The translations under genes and the position numbers were made by a program. The notes beneath the pieces were generated by a model. The model saw nothing but the letters and a program-made list of their open reading frames with translations. It made no database searches and was not told the DNA's origin. A DNA stretch of 64,000 nt from a virus, in the IMG/VR virus record IMGVR_UViG_3300035696_000017, positions 32,001 to 96,000 of that record, one strand, 5' to 3'. This document shows positions 7,983 through 63,409 of the stretch, in pieces (positions within the stretch are counted from its first letter, which is position 1; each line of letters opens with the position of its first letter).

Positions 7983-7988
7983 GTCGAG

Positions 7989-8339
7989 GTGGAGGACCGG
8001 TAAGCCGGGTTCTGTCGTTGGACGATCATTCCTCTGGGATGCGTGTTACCACGCACCTCAAGCAGCAACCCGGAAGCATCGGCCGAGCAGACCTCAAACG
8101 CTTCCTGTTTGCCTTGCTACGGATGGGGTTTGCCACAAGGGACTGTCACCAGCCCTGTCGGGGTCTCTTACACCTCGGTTTCGCCCTTACCTGAGCGAGG
8201 GGCGAACCCCAAGCCATCGGCGGTCTGTTTTCTGTTGCACTGTTCCGTCGCGTTACCGCGCCTGGCCGTTAGCCAGCATCCTGCTCTGTGTAGCCCGGAC
8301 TTTCCTCTGCATGGGTGCAGCGATCGTCTGGTCTTCCAC
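7989..8339 (-). ncRNA. rnpB: RNase P RNA, bacterial A-type
   Basis: Conserved GAGGAAAGTCCGGGC, AGTGCAACAGAAA and AACAGAACCCGGCTTA segments; P1 helix GTGGAAGACC/GGTCCTCCAC. Confidence 0.95.
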
Positions 8340-8430: not shown

Positions 8431-8793
8431 TTACGTTATGTCTACGGCGACCTTCATCGCCTTTCCTCGAACCAGCTGGATCTTGTTGATGAAGACCAGG
8501 GTGTTGATAACCCCGACGTCACCCATCGGCCAACGCTGCATCTCGTTCTGCAGCTTCTCCGACATCTTCTCGCTGAGACCGGTCTCGCCCTGGGGACCGT
8601 CGACGACGACAGCAACGTCGATGTCGCTGCCCTCGTGGAACTGGGTCCTGTCGAGGACGCTGCCCACAACGTAGACCTCCCGGCATGGGACGCCGAGGAC
8701 GTCAGTCGCAGTGTTCCGGATGAAGCCAGCGTTCTGCTTCACCGTCTCGATGGCTTCCTTGCGGTACTCCTCAAGCTCCGGGTTGCTGCTCAT
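8431..8793 (-). CDS. minimal nucleotidyltransferase (Pol-beta superfamily)
   Basis: VYVVGSV..GSDIDVAVVV (hGS..DhD motif). Confidence 0.8.
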   Translation of the reverse strand: MSSNPELEEYRKEAIETVKQNAGFIRNTATDVLGVPCREVYVVGSVLDRTQFHEGSDIDVAVVVDGPQGETGLSEKMSEKLQNEMQRWPMGDVGVINTLVFINKIQLVRGKAMKVAVDIT

Positions 8794-9549: not shown

Positions 9550-9552
9550 ATC

Positions 9553-9633
9553 ACCGTTCACCTACTGCACAGGATTCGAACCTGACTGCCCACCTTCGAG
9601 GGGTGGTGCTCTTCCGACGAGCTCGCGAATGGT
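9553..9633 (-). ncRNA. tRNA-like RNA with non-standard acceptor ending GGTGAAC
   Basis: D, anticodon (CCTCGAA) and T arms present; 8-nt bulge, then ACCATTCGC/GTGAACGGT stem. Confidence 0.55.
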
Positions 9634-9641
9634 TACTAGGT

Positions 9642-9716
9642 TGGAGCGGGCGGCGGGATTCGAACCCGCGTGTCCAGGCTGGCGACCTGGTGCCTGTGCC
9701 TCTCGGCCACACCCGC
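9642..9716 (-). tRNA. tRNA-Gly(GCC), C33
   Basis: GCGGGTG acceptor, U73, loop TCGCCAG, CCA. Confidence 0.88.
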
Positions 9717-9721
9717 GTACG

Positions 9722-9815
9722 TCTTTCACTTCCGGTCTGACGGGATTCGAACCCGCACGCTCTTGCGAGCAGCCGGTTTTCTGCCGGCCGTGTCTACCAT
9801 TCCACCACAGCTGCC
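9722..9815 (-). ncRNA. tRNA-Leu-like RNA with broken acceptor stem
   Basis: Leu D arm, variable arm and T arm intact; loop CAGAAAA; 3' end GGAAGTGAAAG. Confidence 0.55.
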
Positions 9816-9843
9816 CGTTTCATGGGCGTAGTTACTTGACGGG

Positions 9844-9916
9844 AGCTAGCCACGGGAGTCGAACCCGTCATCTCGTCCGTACCAAGGACGCGTGTTCCCA
9901 CGCCTACTCGGCTAGC
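9844..9916 (-). tRNA. tRNA-Thr(GGT), weak D arm
   Basis: Loop TTGGTAC; acceptor GCTAGCC/GGCTAGC. Confidence 0.8.
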
Positions 9917-9920
9917 GTTT

Positions 9921-10042
9921 CGTTTTCACCTGCATGGGACTCGAACCCACAAGGCCTACTGCGATACCCCGTCACCGGGAGCACTCGGCCAGGCTCGTTT
10001 TTTTAGACGTGCCGCGTATGCCATTCCGCCACCCAGGAAGCG
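9921..10042 (-). ncRNA. tRNA-Leu-like RNA with about 40-nt extra arm and non-standard ends
   Basis: D arm GGCGGAATGGCATACGC, A-rich enlarged anticodon loop, T arm GTGGG-TTCGAGT-CCCAT, 3' GCAGGTGAAAACG. Confidence 0.55.
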
Positions 10043-10067
10043 CCCGGGGTCACATGGTTACTCACGG

Positions 10068-11918: not shown

Positions 11919-11988
11919 GTCTCAGAACCATACTGTAGGCCGTTGGCTCGGCCTGTTTCACACTTTTCGCACTTTTTTCTTGGGTGAC

Positions 11989-15648: not shown

Positions 15649-15778
15649 GGACAAATCCTACCTTAAGAACGGCGTGAGTTTCACCGCTCGTAGTGGGTCG
15701 ACTTCATGCAGAGCGCATACGCAACGTACCAGCCCAGAGGGCCAGCAAGCGCAAGTGGGAGGAAGACCAGGGCGGGCA

Positions 15779-16168: not shown

Positions 16169-16786
16169 TGTTCAGCCCTTCGCTGCGAGGATGCAGCCTC
16201 CGATGTTGCCCAGGATGAGGAAGACGACCATGCTCCATCCCATGAAGGCCCAGGACGGCGAGTGGATCGCCATGCACCAAGCCACGATGAAGAGGCCCCA
16301 GAAGAACATTGCCCCCATGGACCCGACCATGCTGCCGACTACGTACTTGAACCCCTTTGGGAATAAGAGCCAAAGGCCGATGCAGGCACCCGCTGTCCAG
16401 AGCAACTCCATTTGTACATCCTACCAGGACTAGGCCGCGGCTTGCACCCGGATCTTGCGACCACGATTGATGGCATTCCCGAGGCATTCGACTGAGCCAC
16501 AGTGGCAGTCGAAGTGTTGGATGTCGTGAGTGTAGCCCTCGCGGTTCGCTTGCGCGTGCTTTACCGCCTCTTCCCAGCGAATGTGTCGCATCCGAGACTG
16601 GGGCATGAAGGCCCGACCACAGCGACTGATGTGCATGTGCCGACGGTCGCGTTGTCGGAGCCACTTCGCTGGCGTCTTTCGCTTACGTTCCATGTTTTCC
16701 TCAGCGCCGGGTGGTGGATGCGATCCACTCTTCGAGCCTTCTGGACGTCTCCAGGGACCCACCCTTCGGGGCCTACCAAGCGTTCG

Positions 16787-16857
16787 TGCGACGTATGGGA
16801 TTCGGACCCATGTCTCCGGGCCAACGCCCGGTGTCCTGTCCGCTAGACGAATGTCGC
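16787..16857 (-). tRNA. tRNA-Glu-like gene with aberrant anticodon loop (no assignable anticodon)
   Basis: Glu-type D arm and acceptor; anticodon arm CCGGGC-GTTG-GCCCGG. Confidence 0.6.
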
Positions 16858-18318: not shown

Positions 18319-18638
18319 GGCTCGACCCTACACCCGAGTGCCGTTGCTTTTCACCACGGTGCGGGCTTCCACCCGCTGTGTTCGGGGTGGATTCGAACGT
18401 GCTCGACTGGTCTGGGTGTCTCCCCCAAACCAGATGACCAGCACCTCGTACCCGTTGACGGGTGCAGTCTTCTTCGCGTGTCGACGTGAGATGTCGGGGT
18501 AGTAGGCGATGACCATGCACGGACGCCAGGTATCGACCCAGTCATCCTTGAGGTGACGGCCCTCCTTGTCGAAGCGTGCAACACGCTTTTCAGACAGGCG
18601 GAGAAGCACCCGGCCTGGGACCAGATGCTTCTCCTTGA

Positions 18639-23751: not shown

Positions 23752-23787
23752 GGTTCTAGTCTACCTCAGGTGAGGTCCCGCTTTCAC
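23752..23787 (-). promoter_or_regulatory. example class A promoter giving a leaderless transcript (GTGAAA-N18-TAGACT-N6-ATG)
   Basis: The same spacing recurs upstream of many genes (see findings). Confidence 0.75.
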
Positions 23788-33169: not shown

Positions 33170-33183
33170 ATGTGTTGTCGAGG

Positions 33184-33252
33184 TCGCTCCGACTGGACTC
33201 GAACCAGTGGCTCCCGCTCCATGGTAACGGGTGTCCGCCGAGATGCGGAGCG
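33184..33252 (-). tRNA. atypical tRNA-like gene (CAT) with vestigial D arm
   Basis: Acceptor CGCTCCG/CGGAGCG-A, arm CCCGTT-ACCATGG-AGCGGG, T arm. Confidence 0.55.
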
Positions 33253-33254
33253 AT

Positions 33255-33353
33255 CGTCACGTCGAACGGAATCGAACCGTTGCTCGTAGTAGCAGCCGCG
33301 AGCCTTTCACAGGATTCTGTGTTTTTCTACGACCTTTCCTCGAACGACGTGAC
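33255..33353 (-). ncRNA. tRNA-like RNA without D stem and with a branched arm replacing the anticodon arm
   Basis: GTCACGTCG/CGACGTGAC stem, T arm AACGG-TTCGATT-CCGTT, helix TCGTAG/CTACGA. Confidence 0.6.
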
Positions 33354-35202: not shown

Positions 35203-35208
35203 GTGTGT

Positions 35209-35287
35209 TGCGTTTCACCTGCTCGGATTTGCACCGCTCCTCCAGCTTTCAAGGGCCGGCGTGCTGACTGTTACACTAGCGATCGTA
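35209..35287 (-). ncRNA. tRNA-like RNA ending CAGGTGAAACG
   Basis: D arm GTGT/GCAC, arm CCGGC-CCTTGAAA-GCTGG, T-like loop TGCAAAT. Confidence 0.5.
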
Positions 35288-35317
35288 TGGGATCGTGACC
35301 GTGGTTACTTGCAACGG

Positions 35318-35388
35318 AGCCCCCGCTTGGAGTCAAACCAAGACCTTCGGGCCGCAAGGCCCGACGCTCTGCACTGAGCTACGGGGGC
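35318..35388 (-). tRNA. tRNA-like gene with sealed anticodon loop
   Basis: Normal acceptor/D/T arms; TCGGGCC-TTGC-GGCCCGA. Confidence 0.6.
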
Positions 35389-35563: not shown

Positions 35564-35564
35564 A

Positions 35565-35700
35565 TGTCATCGTTGGACGTTCACATTCACAGGTTCACTG
35601 CCTGCCTCGCTCCTAAGCGTCCCGGGGATGAGTGCTCCGAAGAGCGGCCCCCAGGGCCCGATTCGAACGGGCTCAGTTTTGGGTTGTTACTTGTCGCGAC
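35565..35700 (-). ncRNA. circularly permuted tRNA mimic (YrlA Y-RNA-like topology)
   Basis: Order T arm, acceptor stem closed by a UUCG hairpin, D arm; flanked by ACTG/CAGT. Confidence 0.55.
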
Positions 35701-35702
35701 GG

Positions 35703-35778
35703 TGCATCTGGTGGGATTCGAACCCACAACCTACCGGGTAAGAGCCGGTTGCTGCTGAACCAGTTGAGCTACAGATGC
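35703..35778 (-). tRNA. tRNA-Lys(CTT)
   Basis: Loop CTCTTAC. Confidence 0.88.
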
Positions 35779-36182
35779 GTTGATGAAAGTTGAGTTGCTA
35801 CGTACGTTTCACTTCGGTACGACGGAAATCGTGACTTTTCTCGTCGTGGACATTTGGGACGACCAATGTTGCGGCCGCAGTATGTCGGGGTCTGCGCGTG
35901 ACAGTTCGGACAGATAAGACCAAGATTGGTCTTGTCACCATTCGTTGGGTTGCCATCACGGTGTTCAAGTTGAAGTGGGATGGGTTTGCCACGCCATTCT
36001 GTCAACCCACAATCTTCACATCGGTGACCTCGTTCAAAAATCAGTCGAGCTTTTTGAGCACCTTCGGAACGAATGAGAGCGAAGTCTCGATGAACTCGTC
36101 GCTTGTGTCCTGCTAGCTTCTGAGGTGAGTCAAACACATCTCCGCAGATCGAACACTTGCCGTCTGCACGCTTGTAGGACAT
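35769..36182 (-). CDS. HNH endonuclease with N-terminal C2H2 finger (free-standing homing-type)
   Basis: CSIC..HKRRVH; CEDC..LQLEHRDGN..N..LICPNCHAQT; lower GC than flanks. Confidence 0.9.
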   Translation of the reverse strand: MSYKRADGKCSICGDVFDSPQKLAGHKRRVHRDFALIRSEGAQKARLIFERGHRCEDCGLTEWRGKPIPLQLEHRDGNPTNGDKTNLGLICPNCHAQTPTYCGRNIGRPKCPRREKSRFPSYRSETYVATQLSSTHL

Positions 36183-37145: not shown

Positions 37146-37467
37146 ATGCGACCTCCACGGAGAAACTCCGCGGCGGTATCGAGTACTTTATCCTGGTCAG
37201 GGAACCTGTTTCACACTTTTTTCAGCAGTGATGCTCTTTTTCTCAGTCCAGGAAATCGGCCGCTCTCAGCAACTCGCAGTCACAGACCTCACTGAACCAA
37301 AGTGGATGGGACCAGAGGACCTTGATGCGTTCCTCGCAGCCGTGGTGTCCCACTCTGGGATAATCGACCCCGATGACGACTCCCATCGAGAACATGGTCT
37401 CAGCGGTCCCTGGCCTCATCACCAGGTCACCGGGCTTCAGGTCTTTGGGTGCCGCCACCCCTCGATT

Positions 37468-38713: not shown

Positions 38714-38793
38714 GTAACCACCCTACCACGGTCACTCAGCGACTTTCACCGTTTCCGAGCGGTCCCGCGCGGAGTACAAGAAAGCAGACAGCC

Positions 38794-53914: not shown

Positions 53915-53953
53915 TCGGACCCTATCGTACCACAATCACCTGTGGCTTTTCAC

Positions 53954-60949: not shown

Positions 60950-61250
60950 GATAGCAGTGTACCACGGCCTGGCTCACGCTTTCACTGCTTCTTCTTGCCC
61001 TTCTCGGGCTTGTCCTGTGGCTTGGCCATCTCACGGATCTCGACGGTGAATCGCTGGTACGAGCTGCCGTCCTTCAAGAAGGCCTTGACCCGTGCAACGT
61101 CCTCGTCGGTCTTGGTGGCGACCATCAGGCCGAAAGCGCCGCCGCCCATCCGGGCAGCGACGGGGAGACCGAGAGCCTTCTCCAACGACTGTCGGGCTTC
61201 GCTGAGCTTGCCGATGGTCGCTGTCGACGTCCCGCCAGAACGGGTGGCCA

Positions 61251-62627: not shown

Positions 62628-63409
62628 CTCAAATTACAGCACCAGATGCTGAAGGACAACCCCCAAGCAAACGACGCAGAGAAAAAGCGGGGGCCACCAG
62701 AGGCGAAGGCGGGCCATCACGGCACCTCCATCTGGTGGAACTGCTGCATGTCGAGGCCCTCCTCGATGCGAGCCATGTAACCGGCCCACAGGACGACCAG
62801 GGCGGCAGCGCTGGCAAGGACCAGGAGGACAACGAGCCCATCATGGACGATGCGTTTCAGCATGGAGTGGGTTGTCTCTCAGCAAAATGGGAGGACGGCA
62901 TCAGCGTTTCTTCTCGAGGCGGATGCGGCACTCCTGCCGCAGGTCGGGGTTCTTGATGAACTCACACTCGGACTTCAGGTTGCCGTCGAGGGCTCGGCAC
63001 ATGTGGCGCGCGTCTGCATCGTGCAGGACGCTGCAGTCGGCGCCGTGCGCGATCCTCGCGAGGCCAAAGGCGCCGCAACAGAAGAGGAGGATGACCACCG
63101 ACGCTCGCTCCATGTTCCCCACCCTACACCTGAGCGCGGCGGGCTTTCACCCGTTTGGGCGGCCGGCCGAAGGCAGCCCTTGCCCCGAGCTCGAGGGGAT
63201 CCTGCTGCCAGGGCAGCCACATCATGTAGACGAGGCCGTCCCAGAGCCCGATGCAGGTGCCGACCCGCGGGCGGATGCCGTTGCCCTCCGGGCGCATGGC
63301 GACGAAGGCACCGGGGACCAACGACCGGGAACCATCGGGGGCGACGATGTCGCACCGGCGCGGGGACTCGAAGTAGCCGTCGATGATCCGGTGGGTCTTG
63401 AACTCGATG

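Follow-up and report, generated by a model that had tools for sequence, protein, structure and literature searches.

A candidate RNA family closed by a terminal clamp in the tRNA arrays of uncultured jumbo phages

What occupies the gaps between the transfer RNA (tRNA) genes of jumbo phages, in whose tRNA arrays the non-tRNA content has mostly been ignored or left unannotated? The question is raised by a 64,000-nucleotide (nt) stretch of DNA of a giant phage from peat (hereafter the window), which comprises bases 32001-96000 of the 114-kb IMG/VR record IMGVR_UViG_3300035696_000017 (G000). This record is estimated to be 31% complete, which implies a jumbo phage of approximately 370 kb. The window has a G+C content of 61% and contains 48 tRNA genes predicted by ARAGORN, all of them on the minus strand, while 58 are found in the whole record (window plus G000:26463-31621). 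An initial annotation of the window had described four tRNA-bodied elements (E1-E4) that were said to lack a 7-base-pair (bp) acceptor stem and CCA and to have their acceptor ends replaced by a shared GTGAA-containing stem, and it had proposed that they may be non-chargeable tRNA mimics with a common protein-binding or processing site, such as decoys for anticodon nucleases or tRNA-sensing defences. Here, we examine these elements and their counterparts in related phages, and find that they belong to a larger set of units, each of which is closed by a clamp formed between its own 5' and 3' ends.

The terminal clamp

All four non-canonical elements are indeed present on the minus strand in gaps between tRNA genes, and each ends in RGTGAA. 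However, this shared 3' motif is not informative when taken alone, as RGTGAAMG has 12 matches where 10 are expected, i.e., it occurs at chance level. The signal comes from a 5' partner that had been missed: AGTAAC(C/T)A directly precedes each of E1-E4, and four of the five matches to AGTAACYA (0.69 expected) lie directly 5' of these elements. The combined 5' and 3' pattern is found exactly four times in the 114-kb record, always on the tRNA strand, and not once in the reversed control. A relaxed pattern gave nine matches on the reverse strand vs one in the control and added two units, namely E5 in the window and a 52-nt unit outside it, which brings the number of clamp units to five in the window and six in the record instead of the four originally counted.

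Taken together, the two motifs are the strands of a clamp that consists of an outer helix, an AGUA/GAA internal loop and an inner helix (A-C-N/N'-G-U). The 5' strand has the form [outer helix]-N-AGUA-ACN-V and the 3' strand the form G-N-A-N'GU-GAA-M-[outer helix], in which the outer helix comprises 3-8 bp and differs in every copy; over 44 instances the consensus is C-N-AGUA-ACY-V (5') and G-N-A-RGU-GAA-M (3'). Both helices were found unprompted by RNAfold in E1-E4 and in E5. Thus, what had been taken for a GTGAA stem in place of the acceptor end is instead a two-stranded clamp in which the 5' and 3' ends pair, and the units extend further than the intervals first assigned to them (9553-9633, 9722-9815, 9921-10042, and 35209-35287; revised extents in Table 1). 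A pairing between TCGC and GTGA that had also been suggested is seen in the minimum free energy fold of E1, but it is absent from the orthologue of E1 in G008 and from that of E4 in G002.

Covariation was assessed on 44 instances, namely all occurrences of AGTAACN...N'GTGAA that the tRNA strand contains at 11 array loci in seven phages, with the outer helix left unfiltered. In 50% of these instances, the N-AGUA/GAA-N register allows the flanks of a unit to pair with each other over 3 bp or more, compared with 7.9% when 3' flanks are swapped between units, and the mean best outer helix is 3.55 with own flanks vs 2.18 with swapped ones (permutation p < 1e-4). Among the outer helices, 31 different sequences are found, and their pairs are Watson-Crick in 120 cases and G-U in 14. 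For the inner helix, the count equals background if any complementary triplet is allowed, and the only triplets above control are ACC/GGU (19 vs 1), ACU/AGU (5 vs 0), and ACA/UGU (4 vs 0), which indicates that A-C and G-U are fixed and that the third pair covaries. Because AGTA and GAA were fixed by the search pattern, their invariance across the 44 instances is not independent support for the clamp; such support comes from the enrichment of AGTAACYA and from the observation that A-C-N/N'-G-U is the sole inner helix above control. The terminal clamp formed by a unit's own 5' and 3' ends is the defining part of the family. Lack of the motif in relatives had been named beforehand as one of the outcomes that would refute the first proposal, and the motif is conserved there.

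Could the shared flanks be DNA signals, such as a promoter -35 box (GTGAAA) or a recombination or homing site, and the bodies between them decayed tRNA pseudogenes, so that no RNA feature is involved? The window contains nine copies of a promoter-like consensus, GTGAAA-N18-TAnnnT, where 0.42 are expected, all on the minus (gene) strand, and its -35 hexamer resembles the 3' clamp strand; in addition, a gene for an HNH endonuclease adjoins E5. However, these promoter-like sites are located upstream of tRNA blocks and none of them at a clamp unit. A promoter reading of GTGAA was rejected, as no unit has a -10 box at the right distance (TAnnnT 17-19 nt beyond GTGAAA), and the promoters have neither the G-N-A context nor the 5' partner. 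Moreover, the flanks of the units are complementary to each other despite their differing sequences, with G-U pairs included and on the transcribed strand only, and the stems between them covary as well. An explanation by DNA signals therefore appears hardly credible to us. The earlier view that the elements are not independently decayed tRNAs is borne out, since the motif is part of a covarying structure and the enclosed RNA is kept by compensatory changes.

The internal loop itself resembles a known motif. AGUA opposite GAA, with a Watson-Crick pair beside the A/G side, corresponds to the bulged-G or S-turn consensus. In an S-turn, a sheared G-A pair on one side and an A-A pair on the other enclose a G-U platform joined to a Hoogsteen A-U pair, and the resulting helical element is straight and offers a surface for docking (PMC7583486). 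The AGUA/GAA loop, the Watson-Crick pair abutting its A/G side, and the mismatch followed by a regular stem on the other side are common to the clamp and to S-turn RNAs such as the sarcin-ricin loop of 23S ribosomal RNA, loop E of eukaryotic 5S ribosomal RNA, and T-box Stem I/II. In contrast to these RNAs, the predicted S-turn of the clamp sits in a terminal 5'/3' stem beside a multi-helix junction, and the clamp adds a near-invariant A-C-N/N'-G-U helix and a G-N-A turn. The S-turn is a building block and not a family that the units could join.

Considering this resemblance, the S-turn clamp might itself be the functional part, with the enclosed RNA only positioning it; it would imitate a ribosomal or RNA-docking surface and be directed at a translation GTPase, at a toxin aimed at the sarcin-ricin loop, or at the minor groove of an RNA duplex. 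The combination of AGUA/GAA, flanking mismatches and a Watson-Crick stem matches the known stem of the sarcin-ricin loop (motif described in PMC7583486), whose bulged-G part the clamp would copy. The S-turn of T-box Stem II binds an RNA duplex. However, the clamp has no GAGA tetraloop, the part of the sarcin-ricin loop that GTPases contact and that toxins cleave or depurinate, and the S-turn is common to many RNAs, so that we consider a role as a docking surface improbable. Other likenesses may be noted: AGUA/GAAM resembles loop A of the hairpin ribozyme, although the units have no second conserved loop for docking; GGUGAA is also part of the decoding-site strand of 16S ribosomal RNA; and ACC/GGU might be thought to mimic the pairing of CCA with L15 of RNase P, against which the ACU/AGU and ACA/UGU variants argue for plain pairing.

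Cargo and position in the arrays

The RNA enclosed by the clamp (hereafter the cargo) ranges from full tRNA-like folds, which have an acceptor-like stem of 0-6 bp or a 5' hairpin instead, to one or two hairpins in hairpin-only units of 46-70 nt. As the initial annotation had noted, the bodies derive from different tRNA types: E2 and E3, which have counterparts in five phages, are of Leu type with long variable arms, and E1 and E4 are of class I. An alignment of seven Leu-like units shows conserved clamp strands, Leu-type D arm and T loop, including the nucleotides of tRNA tertiary contacts (D-loop GG and T-loop UUCGA). RNAalifold recovers the clamp, D, variable-arm, and T stems from this alignment, and 10 of its 21 pairs are kept through changes on both sides. 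In E3, E4, and their close orthologues, a covarying hairpin replaces the 5' strand of the acceptor, and compensatory hairpin changes are also observed between the 52-nt unit of G000 and the orthologous 53-nt unit of G002.

The individual units illustrate this range (Table 1). The body of E1 has D, anticodon-like (loop CCUCGAA, C33) and T arms and is followed by the 3' tail GAU. The clamp of E2 (outer helix GUC/GAC, then A-AGUA/GAA-A) has the inner helix ACU/AGU, a compensatory variant; its anticodon-position loop is CAGAAAA (A33) and its 3' tail GUAC. E3 has the outer helix CGU/ACG, followed by G-AGUA/GAA-A and the inner helix ACC/GGU, and its cargo includes a 10-nt A-rich loop, a variable region of about 39 nt and a T arm, with AAAC as the 3' tail. 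In E4, the outer helix GUUGC/GCAAC is followed by A-AGUA/GAA-AC and again by ACC/GGU; the cargo consists of a 5' hairpin (CGAUC..GAUCG), a D arm, an 8-nt loop (CCUUGAAA) and a degenerate T arm, and the 3' tail is ACAC. The clamp of E5 (GAC-A-AGUA-ACA / UGU-GAA-C-GUC) carries the ACA/UGU variant, and its cargo begins with a T-arm-like hairpin to which more hairpins are added. On the 3' side of E5 (35571-35600, minus strand) and of its G002 orthologue (L082:18385-18410), there are three tandem GUGAA copies, of which the last alone pairs into the clamp in the predicted fold. Along the minus strand, the order of genes and units is Cys-[E3]-Thr(ggt)-[E2]-Gly(gcc)-[E1]-Thr(tgt) in one block and odd tRNA-[E4]-Lys(ttt) in the other.

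Although the cargo is often tRNA-like, none of the units has a 7-bp acceptor stem together with CCA, which agrees with what had been stated for the first four; at most about three canonical acceptor pairs are available in E1 and E2, and the 3' strand past the T arm runs into RGU-GAA, paired with the 5' leader. D, anticodon-like and T arms, which had been attributed to all four elements, are present with the elbow nucleotides in E1-E3 and in the Leu-like family, but E4 has a degenerate T arm, and this set of arms is missing from E5 and from the minimal units. A 7-nt anticodon loop with U33 is found in none of E1-E4; across the relatives, U33 is absent from approximately half of the anticodon-position loops, and some loops have 8 or 10 nt. 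Because acceptor stem, CCA and U33 are all lacking, the clamp units are not tRNAs and cannot do the work of ordinary ones. None of the five units in the window is called as a tRNA by ARAGORN. The Rfam tRNA model (RF00005, cut-off 29 bits) matches E2 with 31.9 bits but only over model positions 5-66, i.e., without the acceptor stem, and E4 with 17.9 bits, below the cut-off, while E1, E3 and E5 have no match to it at E ≤ 10. In general, gene finders miss or mis-call the units, and ARAGORN labels given to them in relatives include 'tRNA-???', 'tRNA-His(atg)', and a 68-nt 'tRNA-Gln'.

It might be argued that the units are unusual pre-tRNAs, in which the clamp is a removable leader-trailer duplex and the body subsequently obtains its CCA, for example to supply a missing reader of UUG. 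In this respect, the orthologues of E3 in G002 and G004 keep an acceptor-like stem of 5-6 bp that is followed by A and then by GGU in place of CCA, and the G002 unit has CAA in its loop. In addition, no UUG reader (neither Leu-CAA nor Leu-UAA) is found among the 58 tRNAs of G000, although UUG accounts for 12% of Leu codons in 48 open reading frames (ORFs) with high G+C content at third codon positions, in which UUA is almost unused. However, E3 and E4 have a hairpin where the 5' strand of the acceptor should be, E1 and E2 could form hardly any of the acceptor stem, the loops have A33, C33 or G33 or a length of 8-10 nt, and E2 would place a Phe anticodon on a Leu body. Hairpin-only units, moreover, cannot give tRNAs. 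We thus regard such pre-tRNAs as very improbable. As a separate observation, Leu(taa) or Leu(caa) adjoins clamp units in relatives.

On the tRNA strand, the clamp units fill the space between one tRNA gene and the next, with little of it to spare. The distance from tRNA position 72 to the outer helix is 2-4 nt in 21 of 25 junctions, and this linker reads N73-C(C)(A); from the outer helix to position 1 of the next tRNA there are 3-4 nt in 12 of 22 junctions, and this tail is A/U-rich and never CCA. AGUA lies 5-13 nt past an upstream tRNA in 34 of the 44 instances. Junctions between two tRNAs in the same arrays show peaks at 2 and 5 nt, and the similarly tight linkers on both sides of the clamp units imply that a unit occupies the array like a tightly packed tRNA. 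Many tRNA genes (window, L081-L090) encode N73-C or N73-CC without the final A and are often 2 or 5 nt away from their neighbours, suggesting that cutting at the next unit produces the tRNA 3' end, to which a CCA-adding enzyme then supplies what is missing.

This arrangement might be explained by an array-processing, or punctuation, module, in which the clamp packages any non-tRNA spacer into a compact tRNA-like unit and the cargo matters little in itself. The simplest endonuclease to assume is RNase P, which would cut at the base of the outer helix; the upstream tRNA would thereby be freed with N73-CC(A), while a leader of 3-4 nt would be left on the next tRNA. The position of the clamp within 13 nt of a preceding tRNA, the nature of the linkers before and after it, and the equally tight tRNA-tRNA junctions, which imply cutting of 3' ends at the next unit, are all consistent with such a module, as are the RNase P RNA genes that several clamp phages carry inside the array and the minimal hairpins that make up some cargos. 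On the other hand, compensatory changes that keep the cargo fold and conserved D-loop GG and T-loop UUCGA are unexpected of filler, a phage constrained by packaging could delete the spacer or put another tRNA there, the clamp-bearing G001 (91% complete) does not encode an RNase P RNA, and the invariant AGUA/GAA loop is left unexplained. A pure processing role is the main alternative but, in our opinion, rather doubtful.

Table 1. Coordinates of the clamp units, of the clamp strands of E1 and of promoter-like sites (window positions unless preceded by G000)
Feature	Position	Strand	Description
E1	9550-9641	-	92 nt; between tRNA-Gly(gcc) and tRNA-Thr(tgt); clamp and class-I tRNA-like body
E1, 5' clamp strand	9631-9641	-	outer ACC 9639-9641, U, AGUA 9634-9637, inner ACC 9631-9633
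E1, 3' clamp strand	9553-9565	-	G-U-A, inner GGU 9560-9562, GAA 9557-9559, C, outer GGU 9553-9555
E2	9717-9841	-	between tRNA-Thr(ggt) and tRNA-Gly(gcc); clamp, 5' hairpin, Leu-type body with long variable arm
E3	9917-10066	-	between tRNA-Cys and tRNA-Thr(ggt); clamp, 5' hairpin replacing the 5' strand of the acceptor, Leu-type D arm
E4	35203-35315	-	between odd tRNA (35316-35388) and tRNA-Lys(ttt); class I
E5	about 35564-35701	-	between tRNA-Lys(ctt) and tRNA-Arg(gcg); found by relaxed search, absent from the initial annotation
Sixth unit	G000:28021-28072		outside the window; 52 nt; found by relaxed search
Promoter-like site	11932-11961	-	GTGAAA-N18-TAnnnT; 5' of the tRNA block with E1-E3
Promoter-like site	37185-37214	-	GTGAAA-N18-TAnnnT; 5' of the tRNA block with E4 and E5
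Other promoter-like sites	15655-15684, 18325-18354, 23758-23787, 38720-38749, 53924-53953, 60956-60985, 63121-63150	-	consensus match

Possible roles of the clamp units

The reading that we prefer, with a probability of roughly 0.4, is that the units are sealed, non-chargeable tRNA mimics with a common recognition handle; it and the processing role discussed above are not mutually exclusive. Release of the neighbouring tRNAs, by RNase P at the 5' end of the next tRNA and by 3' processing of the upstream one, would at the same time set the unit free, whose ends would be sealed in the clamp and bear a short A/U-rich tail, never CCA. With such ends, a unit would presumably receive no CCA, carry no amino acid and take no part in decoding, and it should be resistant to exonucleases. 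The invariant S-turn together with the A-C/G-U helix could be the handle for one shared partner, either a protein or an RNA surface, and tRNA-derived cargo would offer an elbow and an anticodon-like arm to tRNA-binding factors. If so, our guess is that the units bind or titrate factors that interact with tRNAs, such as tRNA-targeting nucleases or enzymes of tRNA modification and processing. The structure is well supported, whereas the function is a guess. The initial idea of non-chargeable tRNA mimics with a shared protein-binding or processing site thus remains a reasonable description as far as the missing canonical acceptor is concerned, but it does not cover the hairpin cargo, which is not tRNA-like, and the suggested decoys for anticodon nucleases or tRNA-sensing defences would be speculation.

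Several points weigh against this reading. It is the gene layout only that suggests discrete sealed RNAs, and a pure processing role would account just as well for the close spacing behind tRNAs; similarly, the S-turn geometry of the clamp is deduced from a sequence consensus. The anticodon-position loops differ between orthologous units, so that no specific tRNA is obviously mimicked, and a comparison of the anticodon arms of the cargo with the phage's own tRNA arms revealed no copies. As many units hold cargo unlike tRNA, with hairpins of 46-70 nt enclosed by the same clamp, tRNA mimicry is not the defining feature and cannot be the function of the whole family. Finally, no clamp-specific partner was found among the candidates considered, as neither phage RNase P RNA nor RNA ligase, RtcB or Ro/TROVE qualifies (see below).

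A more far-reaching version, which we hold to be unlikely, would see the clamp as a portable handle by which duplicated tRNA genes or bare anticodon-type hairpins become end-sealed RNAs outside translation, with one dedicated partner reading the S-turn; in that case, the units might be programmable tRNA decoys or sponges. They could act against host defences that target tRNAs, or on translation factors that read surfaces of the sarcin-ricin type, and even circularisation is conceivable, as the clamp would set the 5'-phosphate beside the 3'-OH. If the units are stable RNAs, they would constitute a new class of tRNA mimics that are unchargeable by construction. The clamp could also serve as a natural scaffold for displaying RNA hairpins.

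Comparison with known RNAs places the family close to several others without assigning it to any of them. YrlA-type Y RNAs (RF02553), which are known from bacterial and mycobacteriophage genomes, are likewise non-coding and built from modules: a tRNA-like domain, whose D and T arms have the tertiary contacts of tRNAs, is joined to a stem between the 5' and 3' ends, and this stem bears a conserved motif for protein binding. They are as a rule not aminoacylated and are found in some phages (Chen et al. 2014, PMC4201824). The closed hairpin at the place of the acceptor strand in E3 and E4 is a further partial likeness. However, the terminal stem replaces the anticodon arm in YrlA, whereas the clamp emerges at the acceptor position with an anticodon-like arm kept, and the clamp also encloses non-tRNA cargo. 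The YrlA motif GNCGAAN0-1G was not seen on reading E1-E4. Assignment to YrlA was rejected, as the matches reach 14.4-15.4 bits (gathering cut-off 69), come mainly from the T-arm sequence of neighbouring tRNAs and go with a different topology, and there is no Ro gene in G000-G004.

With the tRNA genes of phages (RF00005), the units share array location, strand and packing, and many cargos keep D, anticodon, variable, and T arms as well as the elbow; they differ from them in the absent 7-bp acceptor stem and N73-CCA, in the clamped ends and in the frequency of non-U33 or oversized loops. HDV-like 'theta' ribozymes lie directly 3' of phage tRNAs and help to make tRNA 3' ends, a position resembling that of the clamp straight after N73-CC(A). 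Like these and other self-cleaving ribozymes, and like GOLLD (RF01998) and ROOL (RF03087), the units are phage non-coding RNAs beside or among tRNA genes, but they are only 46-150 nt long and have variable cargo, a two-stranded internal-loop core and no known catalytic fold. Rfam scans with gathering and with permissive thresholds found nothing beyond tRNA and RNase P: YrlA, transfer-messenger RNA (tmRNA) and mascRNA were far below their cut-offs, and no ribozyme or large-RNA family of Rfam matches the units. A full-text literature search also revealed no description of a clamp RNA family. The clamp units thus form an RNA family that is real and conserved and, apparently, has not been described before.

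Distribution and surrounding genes

The family belongs to one clade of uncultured GC-rich jumbo phages, in which it is embedded in polycistronic tRNA arrays. A pattern with both clamp strands and the T-loop was detected at 16 loci in 13 other viral contigs, several of which are 300-370 kb in length, and at least six uncultured relatives, likewise jumbo phages, carry the clamp in syntenic tRNA arrays, with units in the same slots as in the window. Scans of whole records with the clamp strands only also showed enrichment on the tRNA strand of four relatives (G001-G004); in the complete 369-kb G002, for example, 14 matches were obtained compared with 3-4 in the control. A sizeable share of the array 'spacers' thus consists of a conserved modular RNA family, with six units beside 58 tRNAs in G000 and about 13 units in the complete relative. 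Matches in the AT-rich G006 look like chance.

Outside this clade, the cultured 308-kb Acidobacteria jumbo phage Tunturi_5 (Tunturiibacter phage) has large tRNA arrays and no clamp, and no close cultured phage was present in the collection searched (best protein identity, 24%). The same pattern produced 21 matches in cellular genomes (596 Gb), nearly all of which appear to be chance matches because the third inner position is often unpairable, many are ordinary tRNAs with coincidental flanks, and none is located in an array. A clamp-like unit whose upstream flank resembles those of the phage units was observed on a 6.5-kb contig of a metagenome-assembled genome of an Acidobacteria bacterium (L107, JAGNMH010000325.1); this contig may be a mis-binned phage fragment from a relative, and may give a weak hint to the host.

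We also examined genes that might accompany the clamp. A bacterial type-A RNase P RNA was detected by the Rfam scan on the minus strand of the window (7985-8339), but as a companion this RNA is present in only some clamp phages, where it is located inside the array, and none was found in the clamp-bearing G001. A 21-bit match to the class-A RNase P model at G001:262137-262225 (L099), which covers model positions 1-367 with only 89 nt and overlaps a clamp unit in a tRNA array, is probably spurious. TROVE (PF05731) had no match in G000, G001, G002, G003, or G004, while control genomes responded, and RtcB, sought as a companion gene, was absent. RNA ligase PF09414 was dismissed as a clamp-specific companion, as it is ubiquitous and also present in the clamp-less Tunturi_5, and small ORFs inside the array yielded no informative family. 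Genes in the neighbourhood encode an RF1-like factor, a NADAR protein, an RNA ligase, a DNA ligase and a small nucleotidyltransferase. The last of these is a minimal enzyme of 120 amino acids (NTP_transf_2 / Pol-beta type; 8431-8793, minus strand), whose gene lies just downstream of tRNA-Leu(gag) in the array and a short way upstream of a tRNA-Leu(cag)-RNase P RNA pair.

Two of the promoter-like sites in Table 1 are just upstream of tRNA blocks that contain clamp units (11961 and 37214), which implies that the elements lie inside polycistronic tRNA transcripts. In this consensus, GG or TG is often found directly before TA. The HNH endonuclease gene mentioned above (35769-36182, minus strand) is located within the tRNA array, with tRNA-Lys(ctt) genes on both sides, and E5 follows just downstream. 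Three ARAGORN calls of 'tRNA-???' on the minus strand of the window (16786-16857, 33182-33273, and 35316-35388) have 'anticodons' of 2 or 4 bases, which correspond to anticodon loops of 6 or 8 nt. Such calls recur across the arrays of G001-G004, and some of those in the relatives are clamp units.

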